Shown: positions 59 to 32,142 of the stretch, in pieces
Position numbering within the stretch: the first letter of the stretch is position 1
How the letters are laid out: each line of letters opens with the position of its first letter
Assembly (NCBI GenBank): GCA_037142675.1
Contig: JBAXAF010000005.1
Coordinates: 1-57,758 of the forward strand
Direction of reading: 5' to 3'
From: Candidatus Berkelbacteria bacterium
Lineage (GTDB): Bacteria; Patescibacteriota; UBA1384; XYA2-FULL-43-10; CAINNR01
Length of the DNA stretch: 57,758 nt
Position numbers and translations under genes: made by a program
Notes under the pieces: model-generated
Seen by the model: only the letters and a program-made list of their open reading frames with translations
Told to the model about the DNA's origin: nothing
Database searches by the model: none

Positions 59-87
59 TTGACAAAAACAAGCATTTACATTATGCT
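59..87 (+). promoter_or_regulatory. sigma70-type promoter of GC-rich cassette 1
   Basis: TTGACA 59-64, 17-nt spacer, TATGCT 82-87, in an AT-rich leader directly upstream of a GC-rich ORF. Confidence 0.45.
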
Positions 88-122
88 TCAGCAAGCATCC
101 CACGAAAGGGGCTACATCAACC

Positions 123-737
123 ATGGATTGGCTACTGTGGAGCGGTTCACCCGTTCCGGCAAAGCAGATATATCTGCTGCGGAAGTTCGAGACTAACGAG
201 ATGGAGGAAGGAAGCCGAGCTTTTGCTCGCGTCTATGAGTACACTGCCGGTCCTGGTCTCGATCTGGCGAAAACGAACGGTGTCATCAGCTTCGTCCACA
301 CCGAGAGCGGAGGCTTCTTCGCTGAGGAGGCCACCAGCGATGACTACGACTTTGTCAACGCGCACGAAAACGAGGGCTGGAAGTTCCTGGCCTTCGACCT
401 GACAGACCCGGCATGGATCGAGAAGATCACCAGCACCTTCGAGGCCATGAAAAGCCGCGGCGGCAAGTGGCAGTATGAACTGTACGAACGGATGACACAG
501 GTCGCCGTCGTCCGTTCGCCCAACCCCGACTACGTGCCGCACGTAGAAGTATCAGTCACTTCCCATGCAGTAGACGCCGACGATTGGAACATCTGTCCGC
601 GGACCGGTCAGCCGCACCGCTTCATCAAACCTACACCCCAAATACCGATCATCGGCCTGCCGTACGGAATCAACGCCAGCTGCATCTGCTCCACCTGTCA
701 TGGCATCTTTTACACCAGCAAACTGTCCGGCAAGTAG
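123..737 (+). CDS. hypothetical protein, GC-rich cassette 1 (204 aa)
   Basis: Open frame with GC3-rich codons, opposite to all neighbours. AAAGGGG lies 11 nt before ATG 123, and ATG 201 is an alternative start. C-terminal Cys/His cluster CICSTCH. No family recognised. Confidence 0.55.
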   Translation: MDWLLWSGSPVPAKQIYLLRKFETNEMEEGSRAFARVYEYTAGPGLDLAKTNGVISFVHTESGGFFAEEATSDDYDFVNAHENEGWKFLAFDLTDPAWIEKITSTFEAMKSRGGKWQYELYERMTQVAVVRSPNPDYVPHVEVSVTSHAVDADDWNICPRTGQPHRFIKPTPQIPIIGLPYGINASCICSTCHGIFYTSKLSGK

Positions 738-762
738 CCGACAGCAAGACACATCAACGCTC

Positions 763-794
763 GCGCCCCGATCTGGGGCCGGGCAATTTTTTTT
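763..794 (+). terminator. intrinsic terminator of cassette 1
   Basis: GCCCC-GATCT-GGGGC hairpin (765-779), then CGGGCAA and a T8 run (787-794). It ends 4 nt before the ligA stop codon. Confidence 0.5.
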
Positions 795-798
795 AGAA

Positions 799-2931
799 CT
801 ATTTAACCATCTTTAAAAACTCTGTCTCTTCCAATATTTTAGTACCAAACTTTTTTGCTTTATCCAATTTACTTCCCGGTTCTTCGCCAACAACTAAGTA
901 ATCTGTCTTTGAAGTTACGGACGATGAAACACGGCCGCCATTTTTAACGATTAATTTATGAGCATCGTCACGCGGCATTGATTCTAATGACCCGGTAACA
1001 ACAAAAGATTTTCCATCTAATTTTTTTGAAACAACAGGGGAGTGATATGGTTTAATTTTGACGCCAAGATTTTGTAATTCTTTGATAACTTCTAAATGTT
1101 TTTTATCAGAAAAATATTCTTCAAATGATTTGCCAACCGCCTCACCTATTCCGTAAAGTTGGTCCAGGTCCTCTTTTTTAACTGATAGAACTTTTTCGAT
1201 TGTGCCAAACTGCTCCGCAATATCATTAGCAGTTTCGGCGCCAACATGACGGATTCCCAAGGCATAAATAAATCGTTCAAGTGTAATATCTTTTGATTTC
1301 TCTATTGCCTCAACAATGTTCGCGGCGGACTTCTCTGCAAAACGCTCTAACGGCTCCAAATCCCCTTCCCTAAGTTTAAACAGATCAGACGGATCGCCAA
1401 CCAAGCCCTCATTCATTAAAAGTTCGATAATTTTCGGCCCCATGCCATCAATATCAAAAGCATTTTTAGAAACAAAAAAACCAATTTGTCGCAAGCGCCT
1501 GACGGAACAGTTTTTATCGGCACAATACGAGTCTACTTCCCCATCTTTCTTAGTGACAACTCCACCACAAACCGGACATGTTTTTGGCATTGAAAATGCT
1601 TTTTCCTTGCCACTACGCATTGATTTAATTACTTCTTTAACTTCAGGAATTACATCTCCGGCTTTTCGAATAATAACAGTGTCACCAATCCGAATATCTT
1701 TGCGGCCAATTTCGTCAGCGTTATGGAGTGTTGCCCTAGACACGGTTGAGCCGGCAACTATTGTCGGCTCCATGACCGCAACCGGCGTTAGCTTCCCCGT
1801 TCGACCAACTTGAACGATAATATCTAATATTTTTGATGTGGCTTCCTCGGCAGCGAATTTATAAGCAATCATTCCCCGTGGTGCCTTGCCGACAACACCC
1901 AAGCGATCAAAGGCTTTTTTGTTGTTGAGAACAACAACAACGCCGTCGGTTTGATACGGTAATTTCTCTCTTGAAGATTCCCAATGTGATAAAAACTCTT
2001 TTACTTCGGATAAATTTTTACAAAGTTTATTATTTTTATTAACCTTAAATCCTAAGCACTCGGCCAAATCGTGTTCCTGGTGATGTAAGTCCAGCCCGAT
2101 TTTTGATGCCACAGCATAGACAAAAAAATCTAATTCCCGCTCGGCGGTAACGCGCGAATCTAATTGGCGAATTGAGCCAGCGGCAACATTCCGCGGATTG
2201 GCATATTTTGCTAACTCGGATTTTTCGCGACCGGCATTTAATTTTTCAAAATCTGATTTGGATAAAAAGGCCTCGCCACGAACTTCAAAACGACCGTTTT
2301 CTACAGAATCCCAGCCCCGCTGGCATAATAGTTTGTCATTCCCTTTTTCTGTTTTGTCATTCCGGACTTGGGTCCCGAGAATCTCGTTTTTGTTAGATCC
2401 TGAATCAAGTTCAGGATGACAGCCAAGAGCATCTGGATGACGAAGTGACAAAGGAATAGAATTTATTGTCCGCAAATTTTGGGTTACGTTTTCACCGACA
2501 GAGCCATCGCCACGTGTCGAACCTTGAACTAAAACTCCGTCCTCATATATTAACGAAGCTGCCAAGCCATCCATTTTTAGTTCAACAAAATAGCCGTTTT
2601 CTTCAATGGCATTTTTGGCGCCATTTTTTATTAATCTCTCCTCCCACTTTTCCAACTCTTCAAAATTAAAAACATCATTAATAGAAAGCATCCGCGATTC
2701 ATGATGTACCTTTTCAAATTTTTTCGCTGGTTCGTCCCCAACTCTTTGTGTCGGTGAATCTGGAGTAATTAACTCAGGATACTCTTCCTCCAATTTTTCT
2801 AGTTCGCGAAAAAGCGAATCATAAACCGCGTCTGAGATTTTTGGAGAGTCTAGTACATAATAAAGATAACGATGCTCGTTTAGCTCACCGCGCAATTTTT
2901 CTATTCGATTTTTAGCTTCTTGCTTATTCAT
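799..2931 (-). CDS. ligA: NAD-dependent DNA ligase LigA (710 aa, carries an in-frame insertion)
   Basis: Adenylation motif [10 protein letters not shown] fold, Zn finger CPVCGG..C..C, HhH repeats and a BRCT-like C-terminus. Confidence 0.95.
2334..2421. repeat. palindromic CPR-type repeat units embedded in-frame in ligA
   Basis: 2395-2421 (AGATCCTGAATCAAGTTCAGGATGACA) matches intergenic 28049-28075 at 26 of 27 positions. Further TGTCATTCC-type units lie at 2334-2383. Confidence 0.8.
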
Positions 2932-2933
2932 AA

Positions 2934-3890
2934 TTATAAATCTTCTATGGTATTTTTTAACTCTTCCAAATCGTTTCCCGCTTCAGCAATTCGTCGGAAA
3001 CTGCCAGAACCGAAAGTCTGATCAACCAAACGACCAAGATCGAGCAAATTGCCTTTAAAAAACCCGTCAGTAAAATAATGGAATATTTGATCGCGCGACA
3101 AGCTTTCCTCTTTAGCAGTAAATATTTTATCAATTAAGAGCTGTAACAATTCTCTTTCTTGTTTATAAGGATATCGTTCTGTTCGAATATCCAATTTACT
3201 ATCAGGGGATTCAAAATGTCTTGCATAAATGACATCATTATCAAATAAATCACTCCCGTCTTCTTTTTTTAGATGGCTGTATTGGTTGCGAGCTTCTTGA
3301 GTTTGTTCCCGTTCGCGATCGATTGACGGATCAGATACTCCATCCATTGCTGCGATAGTTAGTTGCTCTGCAACAGCTTCATTAAGTGGATCCAGATATA
3401 ATTTTTCCCCATTTCTGCTATAGGTAGCTAAACCCAATCGATGCGCTTTAGAGCTATCTTCATTTTCATCAGATTGTATTGCTTTATATCCTTGAAAATG
3501 AAGTTCCTCATGAATTAAGCGATCAAGCAATACAGTTTTAATTGATTCATCGCGAACCGCAATACCTTGTTTAAAAATAGAAAATTTGCCAACAATATGA
3601 CGAGTGCGAAGATCTCCGCCAGATACTATGTGGACATTCTCAGGCGGAATTTCAAATGATTGATAGCCAAGTCGATCCAAAAAATTCCTTACAACCTGTC
3701 CAGTCAAAGTAATTAATCTCTGATTAGTTTCTGACTTTTTAACCTCTACAACACGAGAGTTATCAGGAAAAATAGCCGACCCATCGGGTTGGCCCCTAAA
3801 ATTATTCTCCACTTTTGCTTCGGCATACATCTTGTCTTCATCAGATGCAGTACCTATCACATTGTCTACCCCGCGAAAAGTTTCATTCAT
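2934..3890 (-). CDS. hypothetical protein with HExxH motif (318 aa)
   Basis: [10 protein letters not shown], with a downstream NEAVAE that could supply a third metal ligand. The gene is tightly packed after ligA. No family recognised. Confidence 0.65.
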
Positions 3891-3929
3891 AGAGTCATTA
3901 TATCAATCTATGACAAAAAGAAAACGAGA

Positions 3930-31559: not shown

Positions 31560-31568
31560 TGATATAAT
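31560..31568 (+). promoter_or_regulatory. extended -10 element of cassette 5, unit 1
   Basis: TGa-TATAAT. There is no good -35 (ACTCAC at the 17-nt position). Confidence 0.45.
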
Positions 31569-31588
31569 TTCATCAACGAGGTGATCAT

Positions 31589-31780
31589 ATGACTAACGAT
31601 CTGGATAACATTCAGTCACGCGTCCGAGAAAATGGTCCGGACTTCATAACTCGCCACCTACGAGCAATTAGGCCACCTGACCTACGATCGCCTGCGCAGA
31701 TTGCACTGGAGACCGAATACCTCTACGGCCTTGCGTGGATGCAAGGCAAACCAGATTGCATGTTCGCCGTTTCTGACTGA
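31589..31780 (+). CDS. hypothetical small protein, cassette 5 gene A (63 aa)
   Basis: GAGGTGA SD 4 nt before the ATG. GC-rich codons. No family recognised. Confidence 0.45.
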   Translation: MTNDLDNIQSRVRENGPDFITRHLRAIRPPDLRSPAQIALETEYLYGLAWMQGKPDCMFAVSD

Positions 31781-31809
31781 CCGCCCAGCCCATCGCTGGC
31801 GGTTTTTTT
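31781..31809 (+). terminator. terminator of cassette 5, unit 1
   Basis: CCGCCCAGC-CCATC-GCTGGCGG followed by T7, starting right after the TGA stop. Confidence 0.65.
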
Positions 31810-31810
31810 A

Positions 31811-31839
31811 TTGAAAATACCGCAATAATTTGATAGAAT
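31811..31839 (+). promoter_or_regulatory. promoter of cassette 5, unit 2
   Basis: TTGAAA 31811-31816, 17-nt spacer, TGa-TAGAAT extended -10 ending at 31839. Confidence 0.6.
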
Positions 31840-31860
31840 TTCTGGCAGAGGTGATTAGCT

Positions 31861-32124
31861 TTGCGAAACTTACTATCTCGACTAATTGATCTATTTCGTC
31901 GCAAACCAAAACGGAAGCTTTCCGGACTCGAAGAGTTAGCGGAAATTCAGAAGCGAACACTTGAAGAATTCAAACGCATCTCTGACGGCAGAACAGTGTG
32001 GGACGAGCCAATGGACCGTCGTCGTTGTTCCGAACTGGGATATGACTACATCCCGTCTGCTGGTGCCAGCGAAACAGGGGTCCTTTCCGGCCACCGCCGT
32101 CATCGTCGTCCGCCGCCCAGCTAG
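31861..32124 (+). CDS. hypothetical small basic protein, cassette 5 gene B (87 aa)
   Basis: GAGGTGA SD 6 nt before TTG 31861. The leader GTGATTAGCT is shared with cassette 2. No family recognised. Confidence 0.45.
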   Translation: MRNLLSRLIDLFRRKPKRKLSGLEELAEIQKRTLEEFKRISDGRTVWDEPMDRRRCSELGYDYIPSAGASETGVLSGHRRHRRPPPS

Positions 32125-32142
32125 CCGCTGGCGGTTTTTTTT
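32113..32142 (+). terminator. terminator of cassette 5, unit 2
   Basis: CCGCCCAGC-TAGCC-GCTGGCGG followed by T8. The arms are identical to 31781-31802, and the T-run overlaps the dinB stop codon (32141-32143). Confidence 0.65.

Follow-up and report, generated by a model that had tools for sequence, protein, structure and literature searches.

Variable GC-rich gene cassettes in conserved intergenic gaps of a Candidatus Berkelbacteria chromosome

Small cassettes of GC-rich, mostly antisense genes were found in intergenic gaps of a chromosome segment of Candidatus Berkelbacteria, a lineage within the candidate phyla radiation (CPR, Patescibacteria). The stretch analysed, here called the window (57,758 nt; assembly GCA_037142675.1, contig JBAXAF010000005.1, positions 1–57,758 of the forward strand), carries five such cassettes (c1–c5) with eight open reading frames (ORFs), and a further GC-rich segment (c6). 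Relatives keep the order of the surrounding housekeeping genes, and in them the same gaps hold different genes or nothing. The cassettes are probably horizontally acquired, insulated and fast-evolving accessory genes that are exchanged by recombination at conserved borders.

Composition and placement of the GC-rich segments

The six segments singled out as GC-rich in the original prediction, which was made by reading the window alone, cover 8.1% of it and were borne out by calculation, with a GC content of 50–57% against 40.8 ± 3.6% in host windows of 500 nt (41.9% for the whole window). All eight ORFs were recovered and are GC-rich at third codon positions (GC3) as had been claimed, with GC values of 0.52–0.59 and GC3 values of 0.47–0.74 against a host GC3 of 0.37 ± 0.04; the 51 long host ORFs (GC 40.5 ± 3.2%, GC3 0.368 ± 0.039) reach a GC3 of 0.46 at most. 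The first and second codon positions (GC1, GC2), and hence amino-acid usage, are also shifted, and six of the eight ORFs (the exceptions being c5a and c5b) show the order GC3 > GC1 > GC2, the pattern of genuine coding sequence whose background is richer in GC. The shift ends at the ORF borders, and the promoters remain AT-rich. The dinucleotide signature of the pooled islands lies at a distance of 112 from that of the host, as compared with 41.8 ± 10.6 (maximum 64.6) for size-matched host segments, and the most GC-rich islands, c1 and c4, are alike in signature (distance 55). Ribosomal RNA or another structured RNA as the cause of the GC-rich segments was ruled out, since an Rfam scan of the window gave three tRNAs alone at gathering score.

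The ORFs and the sixth segment are as follows.

c1 ORF, 123–737, plus strand: 204 aa, GC3 0.72, Cys-rich C-terminus
c2 ORF, 7928–8398, minus strand: 156 aa, GTG start, GC3 0.675
c3 ORF, 8998–9804, plus strand: 268 aa, GC3 0.59
c4a ORF, 26469–27023, plus strand: 184 aa, GC3 0.71
c4b ORF, 27166–27786, plus strand: 206 aa, GTG start, GC3 0.74
c4c ORF, 27813–27998, plus strand: 61 aa, one transmembrane segment
c5a ORF, 31589–31780, plus strand: 63 aa, GC3 0.52
c5b ORF, 31861–32124, plus strand: 87 aa, TTG start, basic, GC3 0.47
c6 segment, 50197–50475, no strand assigned: 280 nt, GC 54.5%, between the FtsA-like gene and a 113-aa gene
c6 terminator-like hairpin, about 50197–50232, minus strand
c6 possible ORF, 50243–50416, plus strand: 57 aa, hydrophobic

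Among these, c5a is the cassette ORF whose coding status is least certain. No convincing gene or RNA was found in c6 (no Rfam match at E <0.004, fold z-score −1.2), which may be a decayed cassette. A simple hydropathy analysis gave a signal-like N-terminus for c2 and a hydrophobic segment for c3 in addition to the transmembrane segment of c4c.

The segments were confirmed to lie between intact housekeeping genes, the flanking genes including LigA, BipA, heliorhodopsin, MsrA, MsrB, SecA, HPF, SerRS, LysRS, DinB, GreA, PBP2, MreBCD, AlaRS and S1. All host genes (51/51) lie on the minus strand and seven of the eight cassette ORFs on the plus strand, antisense to them, in agreement with the earlier observation that the coding islands mostly run against the host direction; c2 is the sole ORF on the host strand. 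The host was identified as a CPR chromosome of Candidatus Berkelbacteria because of the source names of its closest LysRS homologues, those at 97–72% aa identity including NCBI proteins labelled Candidatus Berkelbacteria. Pfam annotation revealed no integrase in the window or in the relatives’ gene tables; the 57 kb contain no transposase or phage gene, and no recombinase is encoded in the window.

Layout of the putative transcription units

Judged by their sequence motifs, the cassettes have the layout of independent transcription units, with a predicted promoter, a Shine-Dalgarno (SD) sequence, an ORF and a terminator, as listed here in map order.

c1 promoter, 59–87, plus strand: TTGACA-17-TATGCT, consensus scan
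c1 SD, about 104–111, plus strand
c1 terminator, 759–794, plus strand: hairpin and T-run, just past the 3′ end of LigA (799–2931, minus strand)
c2 extent, 7895–8470, minus strand: between MsrB and MsrA
c2 terminator, 7895–7921, minus strand
c2 SD and leader, 8399–8411, minus strand: GGAGTGATTAGCT
c2 leader hairpin, about 8425–8450, minus strand
c3 promoter, 8940–8968, plus strand: TTGACT-17-(TGg)TATAGA, read directly from the sequence
c3 SD, about 8981–8989, plus strand: AAAGGAGGG
c3 terminator, 9790–9826, plus strand: stop codon inside the loop, facing the 3′ end of the host gene at 9840–10247
SecA promoter-like site, 26387–26359, minus strand: back to back with P1
c4a promoter P1, 26402–26430, plus strand: TTGACA-17-(TGa)TAGAAT, consensus scan
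c4a SD, 26457–26463, plus strand: GGGAGGG
c4a terminator T-A1, 27034–27079, plus strand
c4b-c4c promoter P2, 27101–27129, plus strand: TTGATC-17-(TGc)TAGAAT, consensus scan
Terminator T-A2 after c4c, 27999–28044, plus strand
c5a extended −10, 31560–31568, plus strand: TGATATAAT, read from the sequence, no good −35 box
c5a SD, plus strand: GAGGTGATC
c5a terminator T-B1, 31781–31809, plus strand
c5b promoter, 31811–31839, plus strand: TTGAAA-17-(TGa)TAGAAT, consensus scan, right after the T-run of T-B1
c5b SD and leader, plus strand: GAGGTGATTAGCT
c5b terminator T-B2, 32113–32142, plus strand: stop codon inside the loop, abutting the DinB stop codon

The claim that every unit has its own promoter held for c1, c3, c4a, c4b-c4c and c5b, but not for c5a, which has the extended −10 only, nor for c2, where no convincing promoter of its own was found and which may be co-transcribed with MsrB. 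Hairpin and T-run terminators follow c1, c2, c3, c4a, c4c, c5a and c5b. Promoter-like hexamers are frequent in this AT-rich window (52 and 62 found against about 40 expected), and the cassette sites are among the best of them. The extended −10 motif TGnTAnAAT is enriched (29 occurrences against 12.3 ± 3.3 expected) and is also found upstream of host genes. Its form TGnTAGAAT occurs six times in the window, always on the plus strand (6/6; 2.2 expected); three of these sites are cassette promoters, and the other three (17027, 29341 and 56244, plus strand) lie antisense within host genes and may be antisense promoters.

Repeats bracket the inner units of two cassettes. T-A1 and T-A2, described as near-identical over 27037–27076 and 28002–28040 in the original prediction, share 93% identity over 27034–27079 and 27999–28044, forming 46-nt direct repeats on either side of P2-c4b-c4c, and c5b is enclosed by T-B1 and T-B2 with identical arms (T-B1, promoter, c5b, T-B2). 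The linker between units is in both cases a stem-loop followed by a promoter (T-B1 then the site at 31811; T-A1 then P2, 24 nt on). Two shorter recurrences were also upheld: all three occurrences of CCGCCCAG (0.89 expected) form the 5′ arm of a terminator belonging to a cassette, and the 10-mer GTGATTAGCT occurs twice, each time abutting a cassette start codon (0.11 expected). Part of the 10-mer, including GTGAT, is explained by an extended Shine-Dalgarno sequence, which, judging from the 3′ end of 16S rRNA, is GAGGTGAT.

Contents and borders of the same gaps in relatives

Contigs of relatives (referred to below by L numbers and as the P0013 contig) were collected via LysRS homologues and c3 homologues. 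In these contigs the housekeeping gene order is kept and the gap contents differ, so that the islands are not the same in all relatives. The contents of three gaps are given below.

SecA–HPF gap, window: c4a, c4b and c4c
SecA–HPF gap, L086–L089 (LysRS 97% identical): a different GC-rich unit, 88-aa and 30-aa membrane proteins
SecA–HPF gap, L090: homologue of the L086 88-aa protein
SecA–HPF gap, L097: another cargo again
SecA–HPF gap, L099: a fourth type of cargo end
SecA–HPF gap, P0013 contig: 198-aa pentapeptide-repeat gene
DinB–LysRS gap, window: c5a and c5b
DinB–LysRS gap, L086: 54 bp, empty
DinB–LysRS gap, L090: 106-aa acidic protein
DinB–LysRS gap, P0013 contig: four small antisense ORFs
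GatC–LigA gap, window: c1
GatC–LigA gap, L093: three plus-strand GC-rich units, the third a 192-aa c1 homologue (36–37% aa identity)

The SecA–HPF gap thus holds at least four different cargoes for which the DNA was examined and a fifth by gene table, and the DinB–LysRS gap of L086, whose LysRS is 97% identical to that of the window, provides the kind of empty site that the original prediction had proposed to look for. The occupants in relatives nearly all lack a Pfam family (ten cargo proteins searched gave nothing), most are antisense to the host genes, and those of close relatives are GC-rich. In the L093 array, the first two of the three units end in similar hairpins. c2 is absent from L104, where Dfx and MsrB adjoin, and in sample 3300029286 two contigs bearing T-A (L099 and L100) differ in their cargo ends. 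A SecA scan of a genome collection returned only relatives of ≤52% identity, which allowed no usable comparison.

The borders of the gaps are better conserved than their contents. The window, L086, L090 and L097 all keep P1 (TTGACA-17-TAnAAT) together with the flank upstream of it, whichever ORF follows, and in an alignment of the SecA-proximal flank divergence starts in the 5′ leader. At the other end, both window copies of T-A agree with those of L086, L097 and L099 from “GAACC” onward, and T-A is recognizable in L090. In L086 it lies about 25 nt past the HPF stop codon and is therefore most simply a bidirectional terminator shared by two convergent units. A metagenome-wide T-A scan found it only in Berkelbacteria relatives, next to different cargo, and its flank on the HPF side could be seen in L097, L099 and L100; the remaining matches were unrelated hairpins in GC-rich genomes. 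T-A as a mobile terminator module was rejected, as the four contigs in which it was found were all Berkelbacteria relatives and included the L086 contig again. The c3 terminator is kept in L093 and, after another family member, in L104; the c1 terminator and flank (752–855) are 91% identical in L093; and a T-B-like remnant was seen by eye in the DinB–LysRS gap of L090. The outermost terminators, together with the promoter in the SecA–HPF gap, belong to the slot and not to the cargo, and the near-identical terminators do not form a dispersed module but are either borders particular to a gap or local tandem copies.

The view that the islands form a dispersed family of common origin, related at the DNA level and mobile, is not supported. 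Pairwise comparison of the eight cassette proteins found no two related, the terminator repeats are confined to one slot each, the promoters follow the host TGnTAnAAT motif, the outer terminators belong to the gaps, and nothing shows mobility; reading of the c5 borders against the empty L086 site revealed no direct or inverted repeat.

A stretch of about 70 nt (28045–28115) separates T-A2 from the HPF stop codon in the window, with the two short hairpins ATCCTGAA..TTCAGGAT and ATCCCCGA..TCGGGGAT and the motif CTATTTGTGGATC; it is also present in L099 (79–140) and missing from L086, L090 and L097.

Evolution and homology of the cassette proteins

Two cassette genes could be followed in the same slot in relatives. 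The c2 orthologue of L093 (155 aa) shares about 68–70% aa identity with c2 and gives a ratio of nonsynonymous to synonymous substitutions (dN/dS) of 0.20, and the c3 orthologue (L093–L096) shares 68% aa identity with a dN/dS of 0.21. Host proteins of the window and L093 are 82–96% identical (DNA about 85%). The dN of c2 and c3 is 0.24 as compared with 0.02–0.10 in host genes, about 4–8 times that of a typical host gene, and dS is similar (about 1.2 for c2 and c3). From the dN/dS of about 0.2 and the raised dN, it follows that c2 and c3 are real protein-coding genes under purifying selection whose evolution is several times faster than that of adjacent genes.

When c3 was run against 1.8 billion representatives in a full HMMER scan, only eleven proteins were returned, one of them full-length and about ten short (69–151 aa) and matching the N-terminal domain. 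An AlphaFold model of c3 built with an alignment gave block-mean pLDDT (predicted local distance difference test) values of 73–96 for residues 11–120, and Foldseek returned weak matches (best E 0.039, none <0.001), mostly to KH-domain proteins (uS3, NusA, KhpB); a KH-like fold of the N-terminal domain is thus a possible lead from modelling rather than a result. Genes of the c3 family are found antisense near the same position in several Berkelbacteria and vary in composition, with GC3 values of 0.34 (host-like) in L109, 0.48 in L108, 0.59 in L104, L093 and the window, and 0.70 in L107, an unrelated AT-rich contig that looks like CPR. The family members of the window and L104 are only 37% identical and differ in length, architecture and exact position, which fits replacement by a foreign allele better than vertical descent. 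In L107 (39.6% GC), a FabH-like gene (6549–7538; GC 0.56, GC3 0.63) adjoins the GC-rich c3-family gene, a pair that points to genes of foreign composition in further CPR lineages.

The other cassette proteins have little or no recognizable kin. A word-seeded search of 5.8 billion protein clusters with c4a and c4b returned the query alone; the only leads for c4a concern DUF5680, with a weak Pfam hit (E 0.019) and a CPR protein of this kind that matches locally, and the single Pfam match of c2 is a weak one to DUF4352 (E 0.1). For none of the eight proteins was there a significant match in Pfam, PHROGs, PADLOC or NCBIfam (PHROGs none <E 0.03), a PDB sequence search with c1, c2, c4a and c4b gave nothing, tblastn of the eight proteins against phage and plasmid records gave no match, and scans of IMG/VR with c1, c4b and the T-A motif gave nothing. 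These results agree with the first impression that the cassette proteins show no recognized family and that no recombinase is in view in the window. A single-sequence structure model of c1 had a pLDDT of 33. Nothing relevant turned up in a literature search on GC-rich islands in Berkelbacteria or Patescibacteria.

Origin and turnover of the cassettes

On balance, we consider it probable that the cassettes are accessory genes of foreign origin, insulated from the host’s transcription and exchanged at conserved borders. Each cassette sits in a “safe-harbour” gap, where the terminator of one host unit meets the promoter of the next, and each has the layout of a separate unit, in which a sigma-70 promoter with the host extended −10 (TGnTAnAAT) and a strong SD precede a GC-rich ORF that ends at an intrinsic terminator. 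Given the mostly antisense placement, read-through from host genes could not express the cargo, and read-through from the cargo would not run in sense into a host gene; cassettes would persist only where they are harmless. The gap borders (core genes, outer terminator and, in the SecA–HPF gap, promoter) would stay while the cargo is replaced, lost or added, and this turnover may proceed as alleles that circulate in the population recombine homologously in the borders and the core genes beside them. The duplicated terminators (T-A twice, T-B twice) may mark the joining of a second unit. The products would be small secreted, membrane or cytoplasmic proteins, possibly with a role in strain-specific surface, host or phage interactions. 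That their homologues are so few would fit their rapid evolution as well. The donor pool should have a GC3 of at least 0.74. Horizontal acquisition, as originally proposed, is supported by the foreign composition and the accessory distribution, but c2 and c3 are not recent arrivals, having same-slot orthologues of about 70% identity.

Several observations weigh against this explanation. The donor was not found, the 5.8 billion clusters (c4a, c4b), the phage and plasmid records and IMG/VR all being blank. c2 and c3 keep a GC3 of about 0.6 in two lineages though their synonymous sites are saturated, more than simple decay toward host composition would leave unless alleles are re-imported. Part of the c3 family may be native and old, judging from the GC3 of 0.34 in L109. 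Expression of the cassettes is predicted from motifs, and exact-protein look-ups of c4a and c5b gave full arrays only, with no partial array.

A broader proposal, possible if doubtful, is that Berkelbacteria, and perhaps other CPR, run a phage-like cassette economy on their reduced chromosomes, in which fixed expression slots where terminators meet promoters capture and swap promoter-bearing ORFans (ORFs without homologues) by recombination at stem-loop/promoter linkers, a cellular counterpart of the PeSL shuffling described below, with the genes coming from a GC-rich pool essentially absent from databases. Such a pool might be, for example, an unsampled class of CPR viruses or other elements, or the bacteria’s own host organisms.

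The closest mechanistic analogue is the PeSL and ORFan cassettes of the T4-like phages RB49 and phi1. There, composite linkers, in which a GC-rich stem-loop terminator is combined with a strong sigma-70 promoter, lie between ORFans, bound insertions, deletions and replacements, flank single units as repeats and provide transcriptional insulation; they form one conserved motif family across the hyperplastic phage regions, and mini-circles have been shown experimentally (PMC2839356). Comparable linkers of stem-loop and sigma-70 promoter are seen at T-B1/31811, at T-A1/P2 and in L093, with the difference that their repeats are limited to one gap each and share no common motif across gaps, and that the present cassettes lie in a cellular genome and are known from sequence, mini-circles having been demonstrated for PeSL alone.

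With this precedent (PMC2839356), the linkers could be recombination sites of a dedicated shuffling process in which small excised circles re-insert; integron attC cassettes offer a looser parallel. The gene for any recombinase would then lie elsewhere, unless general recombination were enough. Such shuffling is consistent with the exact bracketing of P2-c4b-c4c by the 46-nt repeats (93%) and of c5b by identical arms, with the similar hairpins that end the first two of the three L093 units, with the finding that c3, c5b and two L093 units have their stop codons in the hairpin loop, and with the precise swap of SecA–HPF cargo from the 5′ leader to the “GAACC” before the hairpin. We nevertheless regard it as rather unlikely, as the hairpins vary between gaps with no common consensus, T-A is present in one gap of close relatives only and is plausibly just the bidirectional terminator of HPF (about 25 nt past its stop codon in L086), no integrase is present in the 57 kb, and neither a circle junction nor a partial array was seen in the c4a and c5b look-ups.

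Phage morons of the HK97/HK022 type carry a promoter and a terminator of their own, a GC content unlike that of their neighbours, and a position between otherwise adjacent genes (PMC3594210). The cassettes resemble them in their promoter-like sites (59, 8940, 26402, 27101 and 31811) and predicted terminators, with c2 lacking a convincing promoter, in their composition (GC3; dinucleotide distance 112 against 42 ± 11) and in their insertion between genes that adjoin in relatives (DinB–LysRS, 54 bp in L086; Dfx–MsrB in L104). They differ in lying in a CPR housekeeping chromosome (LigA, BipA, SecA, SerRS, LysRS) instead of a phage or prophage, in being mostly antisense to the host genes, and in that the outer terminator does not travel with the gene but is tied to the gap, as is the promoter in one gap. 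That the cassettes are true morons, left by unsampled GC-rich CPR phages or elements after loss of the element, is a candidate explanation that we hold to be unlikely. It is favoured by their agreement with the moron definition (PMC3594210), by small membrane or secreted products resembling known moron functions, and by the occurrence of the c3 family as a GC-rich (GC3 0.70) antisense gene in the unrelated, CPR-looking contig L107. Set against these are the lack of phage genes, att sites or an integrase nearby, the PHROGs result (none <E 0.03), the blank searches of phage records (eight proteins) and IMG/VR (c4b, c1), and the single cassettes between housekeeping genes at several separate sites.

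Very improbable, in our estimation, is an origin as old native genes whose GC-richness is upheld by selection or by a local mutational or gene-conversion bias rather than by transfer. The empty c5 gap and the unrelated cargo of the c4 gap in very close relatives speak against it, as do the 37% identity and unlike architecture of c3-family members in two close lineages, and the shift of GC1, GC2 and amino-acid usage that halts at the ORF borders and leaves the promoters AT-rich. In its favour are the antisense c3-family genes near the same position in several Berkelbacteria, the host-like composition of the L109 member, and the GC3 of about 0.6 that c2 and c3 retain in two lineages despite a dS >1.

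Assembly chimeras, in which GC-rich foreign DNA was joined into an AT-rich contig, might be suspected from the metagenomic assembly and the sharp composition breaks but are effectively refuted, because independent assemblies show the same c4 and c5 junctions and c1–c3 homologues occupy the same gaps in NCBI, ENA, Logan and JGI data. Contigs encoding exact c4a, c4b or c5b came from ENA (MEGAHIT) and Logan assemblies of several sample accessions: the c4a-c4b-c4c order and the SecA junction are repeated in the ENA contigs L001 and L002 and the Logan contigs L003 and L004 (the short contig L005 showing the c4 ORFs only), and the c5 junctions with LysRS and DinB are identical in two ENA and two Logan contigs. 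The c1–c3 homologues occupy the same gaps in L093, an NCBI metagenome-assembled genome, and the c3 homologue lies beside the same h135 gene in the ENA, Logan and JGI contigs L094–L096. Host-type promoters and shared bidirectional terminators also fit the junctions.

Comparison with other mobile and variable elements

Like integron arrays, the cassettes are small, often ORFan genes with an imperfect hairpin after each, and the SecA–HPF gap has a resident promoter upstream of swappable cargo. Unlike them, they come with no IntI in the window or the relatives’ contigs (Pfam) and no attI/attC consensus, most have a promoter of their own, the hairpins are T-tailed intrinsic terminators that vary between gaps, and the arrays are limited to one to three genes each and lie at many separate sites.

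Replacement-type flexible genomic islets have conserved core flanks and variable content, and their exchange is ascribed to homologous recombination in the flanks. The cassette gaps share with them the conserved core flanks and the different accessory content among close relatives, and differ in very small size (0.3–1.6 kb, one to three genes), a strict layout in separate units, the antisense bias, a GC excess of 15–20 points and the setting in a reduced CPR genome. Transposons, insertion sequences and miniature inverted-repeat transposable elements (MITEs) differ from the cassettes: the c5 borders, read against the empty L086 site, show neither inverted repeats nor a target duplication, and the window encodes no transposase.

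CPR bacteria have tiny genomes with many unannotated genes, and their gene gain and variation are poorly understood. About 8% of the present Berkelbacteria segment consists of insulated mini-units of foreign composition, sited where host transcription is undisturbed. Were this to hold genome-wide, it would give a simple rule for finding strain-variable genes of episymbionts, probably those dealing with hosts or phages. It would also supply an uncultured phylum with natural safe-harbour sites and promoter–terminator parts, and offer a cellular parallel to the evolution of morons and PeSLs in phages. The GC-rich source and the newest cassettes, which are without homologues, point to an unsampled gene reservoir.

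Other repeats and genes in the window

The window also contains a MITE-like AT-rich element of about 135 nt, unrelated to the cassettes, with terminal inverted repeats of 17–30 nt (76–88% complementary) and five intergenic copies.

MITE-like element, 20615–20755
MITE-like element, 28500–28643
MITE-like element, 29898–30033
MITE-like element, 37467–37621
MITE-like element, 52724–52867

At two of these sites (20637–20747 and 28504–28639) L086 has only about 20–25 nt; the element therefore spread in the window lineage. The copy at 29898–30033 lies in the LysRS–SerRS gap, which is variable too, holding an acetyltransferase in L086 (11358–11840) and a GIY-YIG protein in L090 (11408–11707).

Several leaders next to cassettes carry lineage-specific repeats. 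The SecA leader (26270–26335) has CACGGAT...ATCCGTG three times, the SecA leader of L097 (1290–1340) has CTTTACGAAC three times, and a 130-nt insert ahead of LysRS (31400–31520), missing from L086, has CACAGAT...ATCTGTG twice; these repeats could be operator arrays or insertion footprints. The 14-mer ACGAATAAGCTCGG is common to the c2 leader region (8437–8450) and the SecA leader (26282–26295) and by eye appears too long for chance. A motif of about 55 nt (TTATAACAAGAT..AATAG....GCGTTAAAA) occurs twice each at 10876–10985 and 50068–50185; its host-strand sequence includes TGTTATAAT, an extended −10, which lies upstream of a 188-aa gene and the FtsA-like gene, and is probably a host promoter or regulatory module. 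Between tRNA-Val and tRNA-Leu, the GC-rich stretch 57290–57440 begins with tggtgggcagaacagga..., near-identical to the start of tRNA-Leu(gag) on the plus strand, and may be a tRNA fragment or pseudogene for which ARAGORN and Rfam give no call. The heliorhodopsin gene (6159–6929; Pfam E 2.7e-103) is full length and neighbours desulfoferrodoxin and MsrA/MsrB, and it is kept in the relatives L093 and L104.

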